A stretch of 61,559 nt of DNA, the filler included, from Asterionella formosa (lineage: Eukaryota), in the NCBI GenBank assembly GCA_002256025.1. It is 9 parts of 9 records of this genome, joined end to end, with 100 filler letters (N's around TTAATTAATTAA, not from the genome) between each part and the next. Parts side by side here need not be neighbours in the genome. Positions count along the whole stretch, not along the records: positions 1 to 6,760 come from NKIB01012615.1; 8 more parts are not named here. One strand, 5' to 3'. Within the stretch, counting starts at the first letter, position 1. Every line of letters begins with the position of its first letter. Position numbers and translations under genes: made by a program. The notes under the pieces are model-generated. The model was not told the DNA's origin, did not search any database, and saw only the letters and a list, made by a program, of their open reading frames with translations. Shown one piece after another: positions 1 through 59,888 of the stretch.

Positions 1-160
1 TTTATATTAAATTATCAACGATCGTGGAGAGCCCATCATCCGCCAATTCTTACATTCCTCCATATGTACCGCACCCTTCACATTAGCATCTCCCCTCGCT
101 TTGACGGAGGTATAAAGTTACATTGATTCATCTTAGAGCGAGGAGAGAAAGCCATCCACG

Positions 161-1969
161 ATGGCTTCCACGGTTGCACCCGGCGTGACACCCATGCTCC
201 CAAAAGAGGCGCTCACTGTTGACATGGTGCACTATGACTTTGAAGATTATGCGCTGGAATACGGTATTCCCGAGACACTTGATCCTCTCCCGTACCGAAA
301 GGCTGGGTCAGTGTTTGCAACAGGAGAAGAGGCTGAACCAGTCCTGACATCCGCAAAGCACGATCCTCGCCTCAGAACTGTTGTTTGTCGCCATTGGCTT
401 CGCGATCTTTGCATGAAGGGCGCTGCTTGCGAGTTTCTTCATCAGTACGATTTGTCTAAAATGCCGCTTTGCCGTCATGGAGATCGATGCAAGATTAAGG
501 ATTGTCCTTTTCGGCACATTAGTGATGCAGATAGATTGGAATGCGTGTTTTACTCACAAGGCTTCTGCATTCACGGGCCCTTTTGCCGGTACAAGCATGT
601 GCGGCGAGACAGAATCGATCTACCAGCAGTGGCTGACTTCACCCTAGGACTAAGTCAAATGCAAGCCAAGGATGGTGTGACTACGAAACGACCTGCGCCC
701 AAGCCAAATGAATTCTACAAAGTCAGTCTCTGTAAACATTTTATGCAAGGGGACTGTCCCTTTGGCGACGGCTGTCACTTTGCTCACGGCGAGCACGAAC
801 TTAAGAAATTTCCGAGAGCAGAAGAAGGAGAAGGTGGAGTTGTAGGAGGTCGGGATGGTATGGACGAACCGGAAACGACAGGAGGAGCCGATTACTTTCA
901 AGGTGGCGCTGCAGGTGGTGGCAAACCAAGTCCAATTCTAGAGCCCGAGCAAGCGTCGTTTTTTATCGTACGTGCCGCGACACAGAGAGATCTTGCCTTG
1001 TCATCGAGTAACGGACAGTGGTTTGTCGAAAGAAAACATGCGGAAAAACTTAACGACGCATATAGGAATGGTCGCCGACAAGTAATGATATTCTTCACAG
1101 TGAGCGACTCACTTCATTTACAAGGAGCTGCCATCATGACGTCTTCAGCAACTTTTGTTGAAAATGAATCCGATTTCTGCTATTTATTTTCTGTGGAATG
1201 GTATCGGACGTGTGAGCTACCAATGAAAACTGCTATCGAGGCTGCTCCAGACCTCCTACTTCCAACTCGAACCACTCAGTATTGCCAAGATATGTCGTCC
1301 ACAACTGGCGAATCTCTCATGAAAGCAATTTGGAACTCGCCGCTTGTTACTCTCTACGAATCATGGTCAGGCGAGCAGGATCCCCCAGCCGATATATTGA
1401 CAGACTTTCGTTTTCCAGCCCCCGATGAGATATCTTGGCCGACCATGCCTGGACCTGGCTTTGTTTTTGGATGTAGTCAAGAAACAATGGATGAATGCCT
1501 TGGAAGAGGCGTATTCGGACTTCCAGCTAGCATGAAAGCTGCGGCAGCGATAATTCAACCGGGCTGTACTATTTTCTTGTTCAATGTGACAGATCGACTA
1601 TTCTTTGGGGTTTTCGAAGCGTTGACAGCAGCTGCTATGAATTTAGAACCAACTGCTTTCTCCAAGAACCCCAACGCAACCAGTTCACCGTTTCCTATCC
1701 AAATCAGAGTGCGGGTAAGCCTTGAATGCCCTCCATTGGAAGACAATGATCCAATTCTGAATGACATCTTGCGTAGTAGAGGGGGAGGTCGGATTGGAGC
1801 ATTGACGCATGCACAAACAGAAGCAGTAGCAAGTTTGCTTGCTAGCCAATGTGGCGCATTGCAGTACATGATCGAATACAAAGAAGGTCTTCGTCGAGGT
1901 GACGTGGTTGTGGCGCCTCCAATTGCATTACCACCACGAAAGATTGAACGCAATAGTTCAAGGCAATGA
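161..1969 (+). CDS. CPSF30: CPSF30/CPSF4-like protein: 3 CCCH fingers + 4th TTP-like CCCH finger + degenerate YTH domain + C-terminal DCD domain
   Basis: Plant-type CPSF30 fingers (CRHWLRDLCMKGAACEFLHQYDLSKMPLC...CVFYSQGFCIHGPFCRYKH). Extra finger YKVSLCKHFMQGDCPFGDGCHFAHG. YTH-like FFIVR...NGQW...KLNDAY...VMIFFTV...LQGAAIMTS...FSVEW. DCD-like GFVFGCSQETMDECLGRGVFGLP...IQPGCTIFLFN...FGVFEA...FPIQIRV. Intronless 602-aa ORF. Confidence 0.9.
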   Translation: MASTVAPGVTPMLPKEALTVDMVHYDFEDYALEYGIPETLDPLPYRKAGSVFATGEEAEPVLTSAKHDPRLRTVVCRHWLRDLCMKGAACEFLHQYDLSKMPLCRHGDRCKIKDCPFRHISDADRLECVFYSQGFCIHGPFCRYKHVRRDRIDLPAVADFTLGLSQMQAKDGVTTKRPAPKPNEFYKVSLCKHFMQGDCPFGDGCHFAHGEHELKKFPRAEEGEGGVVGGRDGMDEPETTGGADYFQGGAAGGGKPSPILEPEQASFFIVRAATQRDLALSSSNGQWFVERKHAEKLNDAYRNGRRQVMIFFTVSDSLHLQGAAIMTSSATFVENESDFCYLFSVEWYRTCELPMKTAIEAAPDLLLPTRTTQYCQDMSSTTGESLMKAIWNSPLVTLYESWSGEQDPPADILTDFRFPAPDEISWPTMPGPGFVFGCSQETMDECLGRGVFGLPASMKAAAAIIQPGCTIFLFNVTDRLFFGVFEALTAAAMNLEPTAFSKNPNATSSPFPIQIRVRVSLECPPLEDNDPILNDILRSRGGGRIGALTHAQTEAVASLLASQCGALQYMIEYKEGLRRGDVVVAPPIALPPRKIERNSSRQ

Positions 1970-2419
1970 AAGAAACTTTTAGAAATTCGTTTTCAACCCA
2001 ATGTGCTGATCTTTGAGTGTGAACCAACGCAGGTGAAAACAGCTTCAAACTAGCACAGCGTAAAATTCACGTTTTACCTTTCATTCTGTATTTTTTCAAT
2101 GTCGAAACCCCACCCTGCACACATCTTTCCTTCTGGATTGTGCAAAAGTTATTACTTTGCTGCTGCTGCCATACCGGTTGAACAATGTGGCTAGATGTTC
2201 ATGGGGTCACACCACCACGAATAAAACCATGTGACCGGATTTAATTGATTCCGGTCGTATTTTAAAAATGACACATGTTGTATGGCCCATTCATACTTGC
2301 CTGTTGCTAAGGACATTGGGGATATGTAGCTACAATTGACAAAAGAAATTGTGACTACCAAATTAGTCCAGGCTTTACTATATTGATAATATAGCCTGAG
2401 CTGGTAGATGAAGTAACCA

Positions 2420-16280: not shown

Positions 16281-17501
16281 TCACACATTCGACCGAACTA
16301 AGGGCATTGGCATTTGCTGAGTCACACAATGAATGTTTCCTCCACCGAGCAAAATCTCTCGGCTGGGTACTCCAATAATTTTGTGATTAGGAAACGCGGA
16401 TTGAAGCGTGCTGATAGCATCACCATCGGACGGCTCTACTCCAAATTGAGGCACAATGATAGCCTTGTTGGCTATATAGAAATTCACGTAACTTGCAGCC
16501 AACCTCTCTCCTATTTGTCGTTCCGATGTTCCATCCTTGATGTTGATAGATTGCACTTCTTCTTGGGTATAGCGTAGAGGAGGGGGAAGATACAGTTTCT
16601 GAACAGTCAAAGTTCGTCCATTGGCGTCAGTCTCGTGGCTGAGGTATTCCATGGCTTGTCGGCACCTGTCATAGTTCTCTGGGTCCCTCTCGCAATCATC
16701 AGTCCAGCTTAAAATAATTTCCCCTGGTCTGACAAAACATGCCATGTTGTCAATGTGACCATTGGTATCTTCGTCATAAGCTAGGCCTAGAGGAAGCCAC
16801 AACATTTTGGTGCACCCCAATGCTGTCAGTACTGTGATTTCAATTTGTTCCTTAGTCATGTCTGGGTTTCGATTTACGTTCAATAAACATTCCGCAGTAG
16901 TCAAACAAGTTCCTTCTCCATCCACATGAATGGACCCCCCTTCGAGAACTATGGGGACATGCGCTATGTGAATAGGAACAGAGTATTTGTCAGCTATAGC
17001 TCGACACATGGTGCTGGCAACCTTCTTATCCAAGTCACATGGCCAATAAGTCCCAAGAGCGGGGCCTCCGTATCCATTAAATTGCCAATCTATGGCAATC
17101 AGGCGAGATTCGTCGTCTTCGTCCAGCACAAACGTCGGGCCAGTATCTCGCGCCCAGGTATCGTTGCTACTGCACTCCATCACATGAATTCGTGGTTCGT
17201 CTCGAAACTTTTCCGTCACAGCATTCATGGCAACATGATCCAGTGGTGAACAAAAGAGGATCACGTCTTCGTCGCCATGATGCACAATCGCCTTTGAGAT
17301 GGCATCGATCTCCAACTGAGCATATTGGCACTGTTGTCGAAAGACGGCAGTGTTGTGTGGATACAAGATCAAGCAAGCCTCATGGCGACGGGCCTTGCTG
17401 GTCCATTCAGCGGGCATGCGCCATTTAGCAGGAGAATTAGTTCTATTACTATTACTATTACTAGTAGTAATAGAAGTTGATGGAGTGCCAATGAGGCTCA
17501 T
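16281..17501 (-). CDS. AIH: Agmatine deiminase (agmatine iminohydrolase)
   Basis: Motifs WRMPAEW, DTWARDTGP, LEGGSIHVDGEGT, DTNGHIDN, ASYVNFYIAN and catalytic GGGNIHCVTQQ. First ATG at 17501. Confidence 0.95.
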   Translation of the reverse strand: MSLIGTPSTSITTSNSNSNRTNSPAKWRMPAEWTSKARRHEACLILYPHNTAVFRQQCQYAQLEIDAISKAIVHHGDEDVILFCSPLDHVAMNAVTEKFRDEPRIHVMECSSNDTWARDTGPTFVLDEDDESRLIAIDWQFNGYGGPALGTYWPCDLDKKVASTMCRAIADKYSVPIHIAHVPIVLEGGSIHVDGEGTCLTTAECLLNVNRNPDMTKEQIEITVLTALGCTKMLWLPLGLAYDEDTNGHIDNMACFVRPGEIILSWTDDCERDPENYDRCRQAMEYLSHETDANGRTLTVQKLYLPPPLRYTQEEVQSINIKDGTSERQIGERLAASYVNFYIANKAIIVPQFGVEPSDGDAISTLQSAFPNHKIIGVPSREILLGGGNIHCVTQQMPMPLVRSNV

Positions 17502-18227
17502 GGCTCGCTGATTCAAGTGTCGTTTTGTTGTGGTTGCCTTCTAACAGGTACCGTGGTCGTCTACAACTGGTATTGTCCTTGTCATCGGATTCGGTTCTGC
17601 CATTGTGATATGTGAGCAATGTGTTATTTTTTATTCGCTCGTCTTCTTGATATCATGTCTTCTAGGGAAGAGAATACCAATACATTCGTACATGAATAGT
17701 GTATATTTTTTATTCGTCTATTTATGAATGGATATATTTTAGAAAAATCATGATTTCATCCTACGACTTTGGTATCAAAAATTTTGCTCGGCTGGGGCAG
17801 ACGTATTTGCTTCATTGCAATATCTGCGAGGTATTAGATACGTACACGAATATCCTCAAAGTTCGTACATTCCGGTACAAAAGCTATGGATATACAGGTA
17901 TACCGGTAGTGAAATTTTCTACCATCTTAGGCACCACATACCGGTACGTAAGACCACAACCATTCCTTTGTACTTGACAGATGCAAGCTTTACATACTTA
18001 TACCGGTAGTACCGGTACTGGGAGTTCTACCTGGCGACTGACCGACCGAAGCACTACAGGTACTGGTAGTTCGTTCGCCTTCCATTGGAATACCGGTAAT
18101 TGATTCCCCACAATCATTGTGGATGCAATTTCAATCCCAGAGGCTTACTAGTACTTAGTTTCGTTCCATTTCGATTCGCCCCTTCTTCCCTCAGCTCACC
18201 GTCTCAGCAACTTCAACTGCAATCATT

Positions 18228-19610
18228 ATGCCATCACCAACAACAGCAGCAACAGCTTCAGCATCGATAAGGGATGAAGAAGAGCGCCTCAGAGAGCGAT
18301 TGAAGCGCCGTCAAGAAACCCGACGGGACCACCAGCAACGAAACCCGGAAAGGGACCGACGCATGCGTCACGGCAACGCGCGACAACCGTTTTTCCGTGA
18401 TGGCCGGGATAGATACGATAACCGGCACGCGCCACGCCGCCGGTCCCGATCTCGATCTCCTGCCGGTTATCGTGAGGAAGACTCCAGGTCCTCCAATAGG
18501 TCTCGGAGCAGTCGGTCCTCACGATCCTCGTCGTATTCCAGTCGATCATCCAGGAGCCGGTCCTCGCATTCCTCCGGTGACGACTCCTCCAGGGCTGGCC
18601 GCAATGGTGCGGCGGCTGCGGCTGCTGACCCATTTACGAAGGATCAGCGCACCGTCTTTGTCTCGCAGCTTGTCATGCGCGCTCAAGAACGAGACATCAA
18701 GAAGTATTTCAAGGCGCAAGCGATCAAGGTCAATGACATCATCATGTTGCGAGACAAGCGCACTGGCCGGCACAAGGGATGCGCCTATGTGGAGCTAAGA
18801 AATCTAGATGACCTGTCCAAAGCAGTCCTCTTATCAAACATCGTACCTGACTTTCAAAAGTTTCCCTTGCTAATCATGCCCAGTCAAGCCGAAAAGAATT
18901 ATTCTGCAGCTGCCCCTGCACCGAAACAAACGACTTCGAACAAGCCACCGCAGGTCTATCTCGGCAACCTTGATGCTCGCGTCACGCAAGACCAACTTGA
19001 CACTCTTTTCAGCACTTTCGGCGATCTCGAGTCTGTCCAACTCCAAACTGACTCATCCACGGGGCTCTCTCGGGGGTTCTGCTTCTTGAGATATCACGAT
19101 GCCCGCGATGCCAATTTGGCCATTCAAACGATGGCAGGACAATTGTTGGCTGGACGACCCCTGAAGACGGGATGGGCGACGGCAGCCGTTGGGGCCTCGG
19201 CGGAGTTTCCGCCAGATGCAACGCTCAAAATCAAGGACGCTCACGCGACATTGGCAGAATTGACGGGGGATGGGTTGTTCGCGACGGCTACTGTGGATGC
19301 CACGGTTATTGGAAATGACGACACCCCAACATGTACTGTCTTGGTACACAACGTGTTTGACAAGGATGAAGAGACGGACAAGGGGTGGGAAGAAGATATT
19401 CGATTGGATTTCGAAGAGGAGTGTTCCAAGTTTGGAAAGATCATCAAAGTTGTTGTCATTGCAAATGAACCGGGTGGTAAGATTTACACAACGTTTTCAA
19501 ATACCAATGAAGCTAAAGAGTGTGCATCCAATCTTGCAGGTCGATGGTTCGACAAAAGACAATTGAGAGTAGAGTTTGTTGAGTCCATACCTGGAATTGT
19601 ACAAGAGTAG
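18228..19610 (+). CDS. RBM39: RBM39/CAPER-like splicing factor (RS domain, 2 RRMs, UHM)
   Basis: RS-rich N-terminus. RRM1 DQRTVFVSQL...RHKGCAYVE. RRM2 VYLGNL...SRGFCFLRY. UHM VHNVFDKDEE...DIRLDFEEECSKFG...LAGRWFDKRQL. Confidence 0.93.
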   Translation: MPSPTTAATASASIRDEEERLRERLKRRQETRRDHQQRNPERDRRMRHGNARQPFFRDGRDRYDNRHAPRRRSRSRSPAGYREEDSRSSNRSRSSRSSRSSSYSSRSSRSRSSHSSGDDSSRAGRNGAAAAAADPFTKDQRTVFVSQLVMRAQERDIKKYFKAQAIKVNDIIMLRDKRTGRHKGCAYVELRNLDDLSKAVLLSNIVPDFQKFPLLIMPSQAEKNYSAAAPAPKQTTSNKPPQVYLGNLDARVTQDQLDTLFSTFGDLESVQLQTDSSTGLSRGFCFLRYHDARDANLAIQTMAGQLLAGRPLKTGWATAAVGASAEFPPDATLKIKDAHATLAELTGDGLFATATVDATVIGNDDTPTCTVLVHNVFDKDEETDKGWEEDIRLDFEEECSKFGKIIKVVVIANEPGGKIYTTFSNTNEAKECASNLAGRWFDKRQLRVEFVESIPGIVQE

Positions 19611-30623: not shown

Positions 30624-31551
30624 TCAAGGCAATCTCATAACATGCTTCATCAACACAGCTTTTTCGTGAGTAATTCCGTTTTCGTCGCTGTCGTCGACAA
30701 AATTTACCATTATAAAACTTCCTCCTCCTGCAACCTTCCTAGGCCCCTGCACTACTGACGCTTGATAAAATGACGTTGTATCCGGATAGACAGCATAGAC
30801 GCCATCACCTTTGGATAATCGTTCTATGCCTCCGAGAACCACCACTTGAGATTCAGGCAAATGAAATGTTTTGTTGCTTTCAAGGTCTTCATCGCTGAGT
30901 GTATACATGGCAGTCTCTTGATTATGTGTCATGACTTTGGCGAGAATCCAATCACTGCTCCCTGGTGTGACTTGAATCGCAGCAAGATCATTTGGTTTTG
31001 CTACACCGCTGATCTCGTACTCTCCCGTTTGCTTCAACAGTGCTTCCAGCGCCTGCAGGTCTCTGTCCAAGCGACCAACAGTGGCATCCACGAGAGCAAG
31101 TGTTTGATCCGCAATGGCAACCTTTTCTTCCGATTGTTGCAGAGCGTCTTTTCGTAAGTTTGAAATCTTCTGGAGAGCATCTTCGTCGTATAGATATTCG
31201 CTAAAGTCCTCGGTTGTTGGCACTACGAATTCGCCTGAGCCGGTCAAGACCTTGACCCCGGGCCGTCCATCCTTAGTCATGCCTAGTTCCAGTTGGTTCA
31301 TTTTCTCGTCACATTGTTTGGCGTACAATTGTTCTACTTGTCGGAGCTCTTCCGCAAGCACGCTGTAAATAAGTTGCGAAACGACGGATCAGCCAGAGGT
31401 ACTTCGATTGATGAAAGGACAGCTGCATGAAGGAGCAAACTTACGAACAAGACGTGTCCAGATCTCGCATGAGGTCAAGATTCCGTCTCACCTCATGAGG
31501 AAGAGTAGAAATATGCTCGATGAAGGATTCTAGGTACGTTTCGTCGCCCAT
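30624..31551 (-). CDS. SGF29: ING N-terminal coiled-coil fused to SGF29 tandem Tudor (exons 31551-31445, 31362-30624)
   Basis: ING-like YLESFIEHISTLPHEVRRNLDLMRDLD...SEEKVAIADQTLALVD...RLDRDL. SGF29-like WILAKV...YTLSDED...VYAVYPDTTSFYQASVV...VNFVDD. The GT-AG intron 31363-31444 keeps the frame. Confidence 0.88.
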
Positions 31552-37423: not shown

Positions 37424-39373
37424 CAGTCAGCCATGTTCGATCTCGTGTGCATAAAATTTTTTACTTCGATTTGATTGCTGCTATTTACGTGAATACATGT
37501 TAATAAAGTTAGCTATGTCTGAAAAAAGATGCCATTGGTATCACTCTCAACCATGCCTTTGTTAGAGTAAGTAAACAAATTGACTTGCTACGTCTGATTT
37601 CTTCTTGACTTGTTAAACATAGAACATGATGGTTACTAACAATTCATTCCATTCTAGCTAATCTACAAATTTCCAGGACTATTTCGCGGAGGTACTATGC
37701 AAATTCATCTGAATAACCATACAATTTCCAACAGCTGTTCTGATTCTATTCAGGAGACAGCTGATAGAGAAAGAACCAATAATTATCCTTTCTTCCTGCT
37801 TCTAGTTGAGTAGTTTTATTCTTGCAAATGTCAGAGTGCTACGAGGCTTGTCAGTGATATTGTAAGTGTTCTGAAGAGGTTTTTCCTTTTTACTAGCCCT
37901 GGAGTGGTTGGCGCATAAGGCAATGATGAAGGGTAATGACAACGATACTTGCTCCTGCATCAACAAAGTAACTTTATAAAATTACTGGTGGACGACAGGG
38001 AAAGAAATATGGGGGCTAGAATAATGCTAGTAAGGGTTATGCTAGGTTCAACATTCTGCAGAAACTAGTTGTTCATCAAAAGATGACTGCCATGAGCACA
38101 AAGTTAGAGGTCAGCTTTAAGTCGAATCTTCTTTTTTTGGTTGGAGTTCCCCAAGGGGCTAGGTCACTTCGGTGAATAGATGGCAGCATTGTTGCACTGA
38201 GGTCCAGTGAAATTATTGACTAACTGTTGCTCATTTACGTTGAAGTTACGCCGGGGAACAACAGTGTGCCTGCCATTAGAGTTTTTAATGATCTAGTTCC
38301 CATTAATCTTCCAGTAACCACAACTCCGGCTAAATGGAGTGTACCAACAGAATGCTAGTCATAGTGAAGAATACTTATTAACAGAAAAGTAGAAATATAG
38401 AGATAATAAATGAAAATATTATTCTTCGCATCGACAGAAAATACTGTCAATTGGCCCCAAAAAGATGTGGGATTGGCAAATAAATTATGGAATTTATTGA
38501 AACTATTTTAGTTCACTTCTATCACATATATTATATGATGCATGACATTTTATATGTGATGTCATACTCTTAAATTATGTATGGATTCCAATTTGTCAAA
38601 TTGGCCCACCCAAATTATTAATTTGGGTGATCATATTTGACCAGCATTTTCTGGCAGCTGTACCAGTTATTGGGATTGTAGATGCAGCGGCCTCCTCCCA
38701 ACAGTCAACCACCAGTCTATCTACTACCATTCTACTACCACCATGAGCTGACTCCAACCCCAACCCCAACCTCCACCCACCCACCACAACCTCACTAGCA
38801 TTCTGTTGCATACACAATCAAATTTTTGAAATAATGATGGCAAAACAGAGTGCAAGTTTTTTGCAATTTTGAAGCAATTTGAAAATATTCTTCAACATCT
38901 TCTAACCCATCATCTATTCCTTTCTTTTTTCTCCCTTTCCCTATTTTTAATCACAATAGCATTGCTTACCAGCAGTGCTTAGCTGATGATTCATTTTTTA
39001 AATTATACTTTGGTTACAAAAGACCTGATGCTCAAATTTTGACATCCCCATATGTTGTATTAGTACAGTCATTTTCGTGTGAATTTTTCAATGGTCCAAA
39101 ATTTTCCATTCATGCTTTTCATTGACCAATTGAAAAACCCGACTTTGTAAAGCGTTTTTCTGGCTGCAATTGGAATTGCGCGCAGACCGGTATACTGATC
39201 CTATATTCCTTCGAATTGCACAATGATACATAATGTGTCGTAGTAATAACCAAAGAGCTGTAACGGTACCGGTAGTTGAAATGCGCCACAAACGTTCGAT
39301 TCTTTCATCTTTGGTATATACCTGTGCCTGCTCGTCGGCTCGATCATACACCAAAAGAACATTTTACTTGGCC

Positions 39374-40000
39374 ATGATGTTTGAGGAAATTAAAGCCCAA
39401 AAGCAAGAGCTGCGAAGGGAAGTTCGCGCTCGAATGAAGGCCTTTGATCAAGTCAGCGAACAGAGTGAACAAGTGTGGGACCGACTCTTTGCCTTGCCAG
39501 CCTATCAACAAGCAAAAACTATTGGTCTCTTCCTATCCATGCCGAAGGGTGAAATCAATACAGATTTCGCACTTCAACATGCAATTCGTAACGGAAAAAC
39601 AATTTATGTGCCCCAGGTTGGAGCAAACTTTGAATTGGCAAATATGGACATGTTAAAGTGCCCCAAAGTGGAGAATTTTCACAAATCATGGCCCACCAAC
39701 AAATGGCTGATTCCTGAACCTCCCATTGAAATGGAGAGGATACTGGCTCAACCGGGCGATATCGATATCTTGGTGGTTCCAGGGTTGGCGTTTGACGAGA
39801 AAGGTGGGCGTTTGGGCCAAGGAAAGGGGTACTACGACAGGTTTATCGCGAAAATGAGAAAGGATTATCCTGACAAGCCTATCTTAGTTGGGGTGTGTAT
39901 GGAGCCTCAGCTGGTAGATCGGGTGCCGACCACCGATCTTGACTATGAAATGGACATGGTTTTGTTTCCGAACAAGACGATTGAAGTAGAGAAGAAATAA
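39374..40000 (+). CDS. MTHFS: 5-formyltetrahydrofolate cyclo-ligase
   Basis: KQELRREVR, FLSMPKGEINT, IYVPQV, WLIPEP, DILVVPGLAFDEKGGRLGQGKGYYDRF. Likely ATG at 39374. Confidence 0.95.
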   Translation: MMFEEIKAQKQELRREVRARMKAFDQVSEQSEQVWDRLFALPAYQQAKTIGLFLSMPKGEINTDFALQHAIRNGKTIYVPQVGANFELANMDMLKCPKVENFHKSWPTNKWLIPEPPIEMERILAQPGDIDILVVPGLAFDEKGGRLGQGKGYYDRFIAKMRKDYPDKPILVGVCMEPQLVDRVPTTDLDYEMDMVLFPNKTIEVEKK

Positions 40001-45830: not shown

Positions 45831-47874
45831 TGTTGAAATAGTCCGTACTCCTTCCCGCGGGTTGGGTCTCTCTTCACGTAGACTCTTACGTGATTGTAGT
45901 ACTACCTAGTACCACTCACTTTCTCTCTTGTCTCTGCTTCTAGCCTTTCTGCTAGATAGACTAATTGACCTTCCTGTCAATTAACACACTGTTTCCTCGG
46001 TTGATAATCTAAATCTCAAATTAAATTATAAGCTAAACTAAATGTTTCCTTTCCATGCATCTTTGCTTCCTGCAAAGTCATTCTAAGACTCTCTTCGAGT
46101 TTCCACTTAACATTTCCTTAGAAATCTTCAATCTCTGATCTCGTTAGACAGCTGATTGACGTGGCAATGCAATATTCGACTCGTTCGATTACAATCGAGT
46201 CCACAATCCTTGTGACTCGGGCTAATATTCTTGACATCCTCCCCATTGCCACGCTCAAGAGGCTGTAACATCGTTCCACTCTGAACTGGTTCAGACAATC
46301 TCGTATGTATCTGTTCCTTCATGTTCTTGGTCATAATGTCCGCAAAATTATCTTCCGACCTTATAAAAATGACTTCCAATTCTTCATCCTCAATCATGTC
46401 CTTTACATGATGATACTTAATATCAATATGTTTTGTCCTGGTTCCGATTTGCTGATTCTTCGCGATAAAAATAGCTCCTGTATTGTCTTCTCGCAGTAAC
46501 CTCATTCAGTAGCATTGCTATAAACTTGATCTCTTGTCCACACTGGGACATCGCCACATACTCGGCTTCCGTGCTGGACAGCGTAACCGTTTGTTGTCCC
46601 TTCGACTGCCAACTGATAAGTGCCCCACCAATAGTAACAAGATAGCCAGTCGTGCTCTTCCTGTTAACCTTATTAGCAGCCCAGTCACTGTCCACGTAGG
46701 CAATGACTCTTAACTCTTTTGGCTTACGCAACTTGAGAACTCTATCCTCCATATTGGATAGGTAACCAATGACTCTTGCCACTGCATGCCATTGTTCTTC
46801 ACCTGGGCAACTTAAATGAGCCGATAGTTCCCGAACCGCATTCGCACAGTCCGGCGAATCCTTCTTTGTAGACCATAGTAACTTGCCCACAATTTTTCGA
46901 TATTCTCCTTCCATAATGACTTCACCGTCATTCTTGTTCAATGTCTTTCCTGGTACGCCCGGCGTTGCGTACGACTTAATTTTCATACCGGTCAACTTCT
47001 CGTATTCGCGTAGAAGTTGCATACGAAATTTCTGCATTTGCACCTCCCAGTATTCACCATACTTGTCCTCTTTCCAAGCATATTCCACTCCTAGGTGTTT
47101 CTGTAGAATACCCTGCTCGGTAATATTGAAATCTTCCTTGATAACATTTTTCATATACTCCACTGCACTTGGAGTCCCACATACAATACCGTCATCCACG
47201 TAATTAACAAGTAGACCATCAATTTGTCCATCCTTGTTCCGGTGCATAAATAACATAGGGTCGATCTTGCTCTTCGTCATACCTGGTTTATTGGTGACAC
47301 ATTTCGCAAACGTCCTGGACCAGCATCGTGGAGCTTGTACTATCCCGTACATAGCCTTCACAAGCTTGCAAACATGTGTATCGGAATCGACTCCGATCAA
47401 ACCTTGAGGGGGCTCAATATAAATGTCCTCATCGACGTCAGCATTTAGAAATGCTGCTTCCACATCAATAGCCTCCGCTCGCCAACCGTTGTACATCGTC
47501 ACTGCGAGTACCGTTTTGATTGTCGCATCGCTTGCAACTGGAGCAAATGTCTCAGTAAAATCGACACCTGGGATTTGCTCATATCCCTTCACGACCAATC
47601 TTGCCTTGTAAATGGTCTTCCCGGTTAACACATCTTCTTTAATTCGAAACACCCATCTCGTTTTTAGTGTTCGCTTCTTAACAGTATCACGTTTGATAAC
47701 TTTCCACACTCCTCTCGACTGGAAGTTTTCATATTCTTTGTTGATCGCCTTGATCCACTCTTTCTTGTCTGGTCTTGCCATTGCTTCATCGTAGCTTGTT
47801 GGTAATCCTGGATCAGAAGCCAGACTTGCGTTGTACACAAAATTCACCTGTGTATTCTTCGTAATTTCCTTCAT
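45831..47874 (-). mobile_element. 3' part of a second Copia lineage: RT-RNase H (frameshifted), PPT and 3' LTR
   Basis: YKARLVVKGYEQIPGVDF, IDVEAAFL, YVDD, YVDSDWA, SSTEAEY, then shifted EDNTGAI..RTKHIDIKYH..ADIMTK. PPT GGGGAGGA, then LTR TGTCAA...TTCAACA at 46236-45831. Confidence 0.92.
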
Positions 47875-58849: not shown

Positions 58850-58978
58850 TAAACCATACTCCATTGCGATTTCACTCAACGCTCATATCTTGGTCCATAA
58901 TCATAATCTAAATCATACTCCATTGCGATTTCACTCAAAGCTCATACCTTGGTCCATAATCATAATCTACACCATACT
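58850..58978. repeat. 59-bp tandem duplication spanning the stop codon of the TLC gene
   Basis: CATACTCCATTGCGATTTCACTCAA.GCTCATA.CTTGGTCCATAATCATAATCTA at 58855 and 58914. Confidence 0.93.
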
Positions 58979-59888
58979 TTACAGCACTTATCCCATTTCG
59001 TGCCATTTCAATTGTCTCCATAGTCCAAGGAATGCTTCCCAAAACTACACCCCACATTAAAACCAACCAAATTAAGGAAATGTATATAGGTACATTGTTG
59101 CGTCCATTTCTGCTCAATAATTCATAGAAGATGTGAATTAATACGACCGGTCCAATCAAAGTCCGTACTACTGCATACGACACAGCAAAGAGCCATTCGA
59201 CATATGGGTGAATCGTATGCCAAAATGTCTTTGGTTCCTCCAGTTGTATGGCAAATTTTGTAATGGAATGTAAACTTCCCAAAGGATTGGTACACTCTCC
59301 TAAGAGCATGAGCATCAATACACTGTCCTGTCCAGCTCCAATCCATTGACAGGTGATCATACAAAACGAAGTGGCTGCATGATGTGCTAAAAACAAACAG
59401 TCCACATCATTCAAACCTCCTGTATTCCAATTGTCTCTGACCATGCCCAGGGAATCATACAACATGTATCCAGTACAAAACTGCAGGAGAGCCGTAGTGG
59501 CGTCATTGATCATTGACGAATTAGAACCAGCATCCTTGCGTTTCGCACCGGATGGTCGGTACGGTCGAGATGTCGCAAGGAGAATCGCCAAGCTGACACA
59601 TAATACAATGGCGTGCACCATTGATGCAAGGGAAGCAGCAGCATCCTTGGTTTTTTTGGAGTTAGGTGGCCATCCAAGTCCACGTTGAAATATTCCTTCT
59701 CCTAAAAGACGAATGGCAAATAGAAACATGGCGCAAAGGACCGTAAAGCCAACATTGCAGCATGATGTTTCTGCTCTCCATAAATAAAGTTTCGGTGCGT
59801 TGTGGAGTCTCGCAGACCAGAAGCGGAGGACTTTAGAACCCTCCTTCCTTTGTTTCAGCTTTATGAGCGGTGGCATGTGATTGAGCAT
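58935..59888 (-). CDS. TLC (TRAM-LAG1-CLN8) domain membrane protein
   Basis: SMVHA, FCTGYMLYD, FLAHH, GECTNP, FAVSYAVVR and multiple TM helices. Confidence 0.88.
   Translation of the reverse strand: MLNHMPPLIKLKQRKEGSKVLRFWSARLHNAPKLYLWRAETSCCNVGFTVLCAMFLFAIRLLGEGIFQRGLGWPPNSKKTKDAAASLASMVHAIVLCVSLAILLATSRPYRPSGAKRKDAGSNSSMINDATTALLQFCTGYMLYDSLGMVRDNWNTGGLNDVDCLFLAHHAATSFCMITCQWIGAGQDSVLMLMLLGECTNPLGSLHSITKFAIQLEEPKTFWHTIHPYVEWLFAVSYAVVRTLIGPVVLIHIFYELLSRNGRNNVPIYISLIWLVLMWGVVLGSIPWTMETIEMARNGISAVKYGVDYDYGPRYEL

Follow-up and report, generated by a model that had tools for sequence, protein, structure and literature searches.

A diatom orthologue of long CPSF30 combines a divergent YTH domain with a more tightly conserved DCD domain, a candidate reader in 3'-end processing

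The gene described here lies at positions 161..1969 (plus strand) of a 61,559-nucleotide stretch of DNA from Asterionella formosa (GCA_002256025.1); this whole stretch, filler included, is called the window. CPSF30 (CPSF4/Yth1) is one subunit of the factor responsible for recognising the poly(A) signal. We interpret the encoded protein as the diatom orthologue of the long heterokont CPSF30, a polyadenylation factor, with its DCD domain as a constrained reader, and give this reading a probability of about 0.6. The identity and architecture, that is, a CPSF30 orthologue with CCCH fingers, a YTH domain and a DCD domain, are very probably correct, whereas the proposal that the DCD reads a modified base and thereby influences poly(A) site choice is tentative and falls somewhat below an even chance.

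Neither the architecture nor the inference of modified-base reading is new, both having been published in 2020. Bell et al. 2020 (PMC7641849) called heterokont YTH-DCD proteins CPSF30 orthologues and proposed that the DCD binds modified RNA, with 5-methylcytidine (m5C) as the primary target, and that the YTH domain binds N6-methyladenosine (m6A); an earlier note on this DNA, made from the sequence alone, had suspected that the architecture had already been noted computationally. The text of Bell et al. names no diatom, and the supplements that we examined show diatom EVE proteins and no diatom DCD protein. The heterokont proteins described there have the same order of fingers, YTH and DCD as the A. 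formosa protein, and both are assigned as CPSF30 orthologues.

The gene consists of a single intron-free open reading frame (ORF) of 602 amino acids (aa) plus a stop codon, the sole long frame in that stretch. More than 120 orthologues with 68-100% identity span 95-100% of the protein and carry the identical set of Pfam domains. The named sources are all diatoms (Phaeodactylum PHATRDRAFT_50624, Seminavis robusta 'CPSF30', Skeletonema, Chaetoceros, Thalassiosira, Discostella, Epithemia and Nitzschia), indicating that the window is diatom nuclear DNA, and some of these orthologues are annotated at source as CPSF subunit 4 or CPSF30. Contigs of four RNA libraries align to the stretch at at least 99% identity with no joint or indel. 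Contig X6, from a poly(A) library (2133 nt), spans 76..2208, and contig X3 (2318 nt) spans 24..2341, both colinear and free of joints. These two contigs are what an mRNA without introns, extending through the DCD and the stop codon, would give, and we regard them as moderate evidence for it; contigs X1 and X4 extend beyond the gene and are thus uninformative on the transcript. The earlier note had considered that transcripts might end before the DCD, and the gene-sized contigs instead cover this region. Four single-base differences between the RNA contigs and the window fall inside the ORF (at 769, 1525, 1645 and 1687), of which 1525 A>T is present in all four RNA runs; they are probably strain differences.

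The protein is laid out along the window as follows, with column conservation counted across 121 diatom sequences.

161..1969, plus strand: complete coding sequence of the long CPSF30 (CPSF4) orthologue (single ORF, orthologue coverage, RNA-library contigs)
218..367, plus strand: N-terminal conserved segment, aa 20-69, a DFE motif followed by a diatom-specific conserved insert; 28 of 50 columns at least 95% conserved
368..607, plus strand: three CPSF30-type CCCH fingers, aa 70-149, equivalent to zinc fingers (ZF) ZF2, ZF3 and ZF4 of human CPSF4 (phmmer against PDB); 62 of 81 columns at least 95% conserved
608..709, plus strand: conserved linker, aa 150-183, partly common to non-diatom relatives; 22 of 32 columns at least 95% conserved
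710..805, plus strand: fourth CCCH finger, TTP/TIS11 type, C-x8-C-x5-C-x3-H with a YKVSLC lead-in, aa 184-215 (Pfam and PDB matches)
806..946, plus strand: Gly/Glu-rich linker of low complexity, aa 216-262, with neither length nor sequence constant; 14 of 47 columns at least 95% conserved
947..1345, plus strand: divergent YTH domain, aa 263-395 (Pfam; 5zuu by sequence and fold)
1346..1450, plus strand: flexible inter-domain linker, aa 396-430 (predicted local distance difference test, pLDDT, below 50 at aa 400-419; predicted template modelling score, pTM, of the two-domain model 0.58)
1451..1855, plus strand: DCD domain with a predicted EVE/YTH-like PUA fold, aa 431-565 (Pfam, structure model, conservation)
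1856..1966, plus strand: extra helix, aa 566-579, and disordered tail, without KH (secondary structure, pLDDT 55-62)

The relationship to CPSF30 is carried by the finger block. The three CPSF30-type fingers recognised in the earlier note were recovered in phmmer searches of PDB, in which aa 70-149 matched residues 62-145 of human CPSF4 (6fuw_C, E = 4.5e-25) and residues 64-145 of yeast Yth1 (6eoj_B, E = 5.8e-14). Together with the N-terminal segment, whose DFE motif is common to all relatives aligned, the plant type included, the ZF2-ZF4 block is the best conserved part of the protein, with a mean majority frequency of 95% across diatoms. In solved CPSF complexes, CPSF30 contacts the poly(A) signal through ZF2-ZF3; in the human protein, the N-terminal segment and ZF1 anchor to CPSF160-WDR33, and ZF4-ZF5 bind Fip1. 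No equivalent of ZF1 or ZF5 was found by phmmer against PDB, and only ZF2 or ZF4 re-aligned weakly at these places (i-E 2.1 to 340). Two further features of this part were observed. Between the DFE motif and the first finger lies a diatom-specific, highly conserved insert (aa 33-69, window 257-367), which is absent or different in non-diatom relatives and has no family match. The middle CPSF30 finger (aa 104-119, window 470-517) has the spacing C-x5-C-x4-C-x3-H, and its first loop is, by alignment, three residues shorter than that of human ZF3, a short form common to plant-type and heterokont relatives.

The fourth finger is of another type. The zf-CCCH profile scores 56.2 bits in Pfam, above the cut-off, with its best stretch at aa 186-211, and aa 186-219 match TIS11d (1rgo, E = 2.5e-7) and TTP (1m9o, E = 7.3e-7) in the phmmer search of PDB. 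The extra TTP-like finger of the earlier note is therefore present, but it belongs to the whole YTH-DCD clade and not to diatoms alone: the alignment places it in nearly all YTH-DCD relatives, whereas the plant-type relative P0250 lacks both this finger and a DCD. Only one finger of the TTP/TIS11 type is present, with no tandem pair, and the other three are CPSF30-type; at most, the protein behaves as a single TTP finger would, and it does not belong to the TTP/TIS11 family. The finger also sets the protein apart from the architecture as described by Bell et al.

The YTH domain was then compared with characterized readers. Pfam YTH (PF04146) covers aa 266-390 (72.2 bits, cut-off 22.1, E = 4.7e-20), in agreement with the block that had been placed at about nt 950-1330 (aa 264-390). 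The limits given in the earlier note deviate from the profile and structure matches by no more than a few codons, and every one of these matches lies well outside chance expectation. The best PDB match, both by sequence (E = 1.2e-11) and by fold, is the YTH domain of Arabidopsis CPSF30 (5zuu; Foldseek E = 5.0e-11 and template modelling score 0.72 against 5zuu_A), and the 159 PDB chains matched by the YTH model at E <= 0.001 include YTHDF and YTHDC structures. According to PMC7384225, the residues that form the methyl cage are W411, W465 and W470 in YTHDF1 (WWW), W377, W428 and L439 in YTHDC1 (WWL) and Trp-Trp-Tyr (WWY) in the plant DC/CPSF30 type, Arabidopsis CPSF30-L among them, and an Asn or Asp hydrogen-bonds N1 of m6A. 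In the alignment to 5zuu and YTHDC2, the A. formosa protein keeps the first cage Trp as W287, has a deletion of the stretch holding the second, and has F339 at the third position, aligned with Tyr or Leu; where a methyl cage has three residues, the alignment alone thus gives Trp, none and Phe, unlike the Trp-Trp-Tyr of CPSF30-L. D277 falls at the N1-contact position, as judged by alignment to relatives with Asn in that column.

Across the diatoms, D277, W287, F339 and W347 each occur in 121/121 sequences. The beta4-beta5 cage loop (aa 327-340) varies in length from 14 to 44 aa, reaches at least 95% conservation in one of 14 query columns, and contains a Trp in none of the 121; position 332 within it is Tyr or Phe in 92/121. 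A QYCQD sequence stands in place of the RDGQE-type motif of relatives. These results agree with the observations of the earlier note that the first cage Trp is kept, that the loop carrying the second is shortened and Trp-less, and that RDGQE has become YCQD. Its description of the YTH domain as degenerate stands as far as the non-canonical cage is concerned, but not for the third position and the N1 contact, where the Phe and the Asp are kept in every diatom. On the sequence evidence, the pocket is altered, not erased.

To place these changes, we used 34 non-diatom, non-plant-type relatives (33-45% identity) from an exhaustive HMMER search, 33 of which scan as YTH-DCD; relatives with the fingers-YTH-DCD layout include P0130 of Chrysoparadoxa australica. 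The first cage Trp is present in 32/34, and a Trp occupies the third position in 5/34, one of them P0130. A Trp earlier in the loop, corresponding to the second cage residue, was found in 0/34, and only the plant-type P0250 has it. The loss of the second Trp is therefore not diatom-specific, and its absence from the diatoms and from the 34 relatives makes the incomplete cage a property of the whole YTH-DCD clade. Within this clade, the diatoms represent an intermediate state: in comparison with the closest, KH-bearing relatives, the third cage residue is Phe instead of Trp, the N1 position is Asp, and the RDGQE-type motif is replaced by QYCQD.

The distribution of m6A writers bears on the same question. 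A published survey scored METTL3 as 0 in 14/14 heterokonts and both METTL3 and METTL14 as 0 in Phaeodactylum and Thalassiosira, with the MT-A70 families scored absent in model diatoms. Oomycetes are reported to lack METTL3 and METTL14, and m6A is reported in an oomycete without METTL3 or METTL14 (PMC11449341). The incomplete cage and the absence of METTL3 from the heterokonts surveyed weaken the assumption that the YTH domain reads m6A. Given the missing second Trp, the variable loop and a lineage scored without METTL3/METTL14, the domain has probably ceased to be a canonical reader of METTL3-type m6A; it has nonetheless retained some conserved function, since W287, D277, F339 and W347 never vary.

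One alternative, following Bell et al. 2020, is that both domains read, each a different mark: the YTH domain would bind m6A made by a non-MT-A70 writer, for example of the METTL16 type, through a cage of W287, F339 and residue 332, and the DCD would bind m5C. We consider this unlikely. It gains from the four invariant residues, from the Tyr or Phe at position 332 in most diatoms and from the short cage loop of the query, which is modelled with a pLDDT of 91-96. The Leu at the third cage position of YTHDC1 (PMC7384225) shows that cages tolerate variation, and the m6A reported in an oomycete without METTL3 or METTL14 (PMC11449341) also counts in its favour. However, the second cage Trp is missing in 121/121 diatoms and in 34/34 non-diatom YTH-DCD relatives, the cage loop varies in length from 14 to 44 aa, QYCQD has replaced a motif that some relatives keep, and the MT-A70 families are scored absent in model diatoms.

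The DCD domain shows the opposite pattern of constraint. Pfam DCD (PF10539) matches aa 433-529 with 89.4 bits (cut-off 27.8, E = 2.1e-25; profile positions 2-94 of 126 only), the top DCD score among the 33 YTH-DCD-type proteins scanned, and the modelled fold occupies aa 431-565, where the earlier note had seen a DCD-like block (about nt 1450-1850, aa 431-564). That note had also judged the DCD well conserved, and the diatom alignment shows it to be better conserved than the YTH domain, with 67 of 136 columns at least 95% conserved as compared with 41 of 138. The beta4-beta5 loop of the DCD (aa 488-512) has the same length, 25 aa, in 121/121 diatoms. Of these 25 columns, 14 reach at least 95% conservation; S501, S509 and P512 occur in 121/121, F500 in 118/121 and F511 in 119/121. 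Strand beta2 of the DCD carries an FGLP motif where the YTH domain has its first cage Trp, an equivalence (W287 with F452, and loop 327-340 with loop 488-512) that is drawn from the order of secondary-structure elements in the two models alone. The fixed DCD loop, as opposed to the loose YTH loop, is our main new argument, and from it we infer that the DCD is a constrained ligand-binding module. Because it is the module under the tightest constraint, the DCD is more likely than the YTH domain to be the operative reader.

By sequence, the two domains are unrelated: an hhalign comparison of the YTH and DCD profiles returned a probability of 0.14, with no similarity detected, and a PDB sequence search with the DCD and tail returned 0 matches at E <= 10. 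Modelling of aa 255-602 from an alignment of 51 rows (mean pLDDT 86.3) gave two well-folded domains separated by a linker with pLDDT <50 at aa 400-419, and the packing of YTH against DCD is not confident (pTM 0.58). A separate model of aa 405-602 reached a pLDDT of 88.0 and a pTM of 0.81. The DCD part (aa 431-565) matched 77 PDB chains in Foldseek at E <= 0.001, and its VIA-align Z scores were as follows.

DCD model, aa 431-565, against the EVE protein PH1033: Z 13.7, best match
DCD model, aa 431-565, against the Mmi1 YTH: Z 12.0-12.3
DCD model, aa 431-565, against the Toxoplasma CPSF4 YTH: Z 11.8
DCD model, aa 431-565, against YTHDC1: Z 11.4
DCD model, aa 431-565, against VcaM4I: Z 11.2
DCD model, aa 431-565, against THYN1 with 5-methylcytosine (5mC) DNA: Z 9.2
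DCD model, aa 431-565, against ASCH: Z 9.0
DCD model against the McrB N-terminal domain: Z 6.6-6.9

The fold matches of the YTH and DCD models indicate that the protein carries two tandem PUA-like folds, and the two tandem reader-type folds claimed in the earlier note are thus borne out by the Pfam hidden Markov model scan and by structure prediction for both domains. EVE proteins (PH1033, human THYN1) and plant DCD proteins have the PUA-like fold in common with the query DCD. Toxoplasma gondii CPSF4 (YTH 7ng2) likewise joins a CPSF30-family protein to a YTH domain in a non-plant protist, and its YTH domain matches both the YTH and the DCD of the query by fold; unlike the query, however, it has no DCD, and its sequence match to the query YTH is weak (E = 0.05). 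A stand-alone EVE protein resembling THYN1 is encoded in both Thalassiosira pseudonana and Phaeodactylum tricornutum (PMC7641849, supplement file 2), so that at least three PUA-like reader-type folds (EVE, YTH and DCD) occur in diatoms.

A second alternative is that neither domain reads a modification, and that both are Mmi1-like, sequence- or structure-specific modules binding RNA or protein that extend the recognition of a very short diatom poly(A) signal. The YTH domain of Schizosaccharomyces pombe Mmi1 binds an unmodified sequence motif, and S. pombe is not known to have an mRNA m6A writer. Mmi1 offers a precedent for a YTH domain with a role other than reading m6A, and it is among the best fold matches of the DCD, although it is not a CPSF subunit, has neither fingers nor a DCD, and shows marginal sequence similarity to the query YTH (E = 0.054-0.12). 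The incomplete YTH cage and the MT-A70 writers scored absent in heterokonts point the same way. In addition, the diatom poly(A) signal is reported to consist of UAA trimers (PMC11529991, citing Zhao et al. 2019), so that auxiliary RNA contacts could have a place; that so minimal a signal would make such contacts useful is speculation. Set against this, the DCD fold is closest to EVE (PH1033) and also resembles the modification-dependent readers VcaM4I, THYN1 and McrB, and the near-invariant, fixed-length loop on the pocket side fits a small, defined ligand, although a shared fold proves no function either way. We regard this alternative as quite improbable.

The C-terminal end distinguishes the diatom proteins from the heterokont type of Bell et al. 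No KH domain was matched in the 602-aa protein by Pfam at E <= 10, and only 37 aa follow the DCD, consisting of the extra helix and a Pro-rich motif. KH (PF22675 or PF00013) is present in 15/33 of the scanned non-diatom YTH-DCD proteins and is missing from P0122. That the diatom proteins are without a KH domain is added by this analysis. The Pro-rich APPIALPPRK motif (aa 580-595, window 1898-1945) is kept in 20/20 aligned diatom orthologues; non-diatom relatives have Pro-rich tails without this motif.

Short forms of the protein were also found. Seminavis robusta encodes, alongside a long form of 602 aa (P0102), a short form of 258 aa (P0137) on a 110-kb contig, which is 58% identical to query aa 20-215 and contains the N-terminal segment, the three fingers and the TTP-like finger without YTH or DCD. 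P0137, P0133 and P0149 are separately encoded, 242-258 aa long and of the same layout (compared with window 161-940). Tetraparma gracilis and Chrysophaeum taylorii have short forms as well, and other short matches are clearly truncated gene models. In plants, the short and long CPSF30 forms come from one gene, whereas those of Seminavis robusta are two genes. By analogy, the long diatom protein may be the counterpart of CPSF30-L beside a separately encoded short form. The further possibility that the finger-only paralogue is the core CPSF30 and the long form acts elsewhere, for example in RNA surveillance or decay, is very unlikely: it draws on the paired forms of Seminavis robusta, on the short forms of the other two species and on the likeness of the fourth finger to the mRNA-decay factors TTP and TIS11d, but the N-terminal segment and ZF2-ZF4 are the best conserved part of the long protein, as expected if it is still in CPSF, the short forms carry the TTP-like finger too, so that this finger does not separate the forms, and some short matches are truncated models.

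We therefore return to the reading of the protein as the diatom orthologue of long CPSF30 with the DCD as a constrained reader. In the mechanism proposed, the finger block would place the protein in the polyadenylation-specificity module, and the flexible YTH-DCD tail would sample the nascent transcript near poly(A) sites. The DCD would recognise a defined small feature, most plausibly a modified base, and the YTH domain would keep a conserved, non-canonical role. The tail could then bias site choice or termination, in the manner of the plant and apicomplexan proteins. Arabidopsis CPSF30-L, which likewise has three CPSF30 fingers followed by a YTH domain, uses that domain for m6A-assisted poly(A) site choice, and the YTH domain of Toxoplasma CPSF4 couples m6A to poly(A) site choice.

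A more specific version of this reading names the mark. The DCD, and not the YTH domain, might be the domain through which the machinery of cleavage and polyadenylation reads modified bases in diatoms, perhaps in all heterokonts, and the modification might be one of cytosine (in nascent RNA, m5C or one of its derivatives; in the DNA template, 5mC), because the lineage is scored as having no MT-A70 methyltransferase of any kind. Phaeodactylum DNA contains 5mC and lacks N6-methyladenine (6mA) (PMC12695648). This version is doubtful. If it were true, methylation would be coupled to poly(A)-site choice or termination, and the YTH domain would be a relic put to another use.

Several points weigh against the reading that we prefer. 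The alignment of the YTH loop is uncertain, and the cage residues are assigned from it; the invariant W287, D277 and F339, with the mostly aromatic position 332, could form a working methyl pocket. The survey of writers covers species other than A. formosa and MT-A70 enzymes only, so METTL16-type writers are not excluded by it. The contacts with CPSF160-WDR33 and Fip1 are assumed for a protein without a ZF1 or ZF5 equivalent, and the short paralogue of Seminavis robusta implies that the long protein may be an accessory form and not a core subunit. The RNA evidence consists of assembled contigs, which cannot prove transcription, strand, expression level or the true 5' and 3' ends. Finally, no experimental test (binding, localisation or complex) of this protein or of any eukaryotic DCD was found in the literature searched, from which subscription-only papers were excluded.

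The remainder of the window is unremarkable. It consists of joined parts of separate records, and the ORFs in other parts need not be genomic neighbours of 161..1969. Those with Pfam assignments are listed below.

16284-17516, minus strand: PAD_porph-type deiminase ORF
18228-19607, plus strand: two-RRM protein ORF
30627-31361, minus strand: SGF29 tudor ORF
39233-39997, plus strand: 5-formyltetrahydrofolate cyclo-ligase ORF
58938-59888, minus strand: TLC-domain protein ORF

In addition, a copia-type reverse transcriptase ORF of 483 aa lies at 46426-47874 on the minus strand (RVT_2, E = 1.6e-44) and is a retrotransposon remnant or copy. Nine other window ORFs of at least 220 aa gave no Pfam match at E <= 1e-5. 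The neighbourhood is one of ordinary nuclear genes and has no bearing on the function of the protein.

In plants and apicomplexans, fusions of CPSF30 with a YTH domain provide the clearest link known so far from an RNA mark to the choice of poly(A) site. Diatoms, which are major primary producers with genetic tools, carry a second, better conserved reader-like fold in the same protein, in a lineage that published tables score without the usual m6A writer. The analysis names candidate pocket residues on both sides, W287, F339 and D277 in the YTH domain and the loop aa 488-512 with F452 in the DCD. Should the DCD prove to bind a defined modification, a family so far described in plant cell-death genes and bacterial restriction systems would gain its first ligand, and 3'-end formation would be shown to take input from a new mark.

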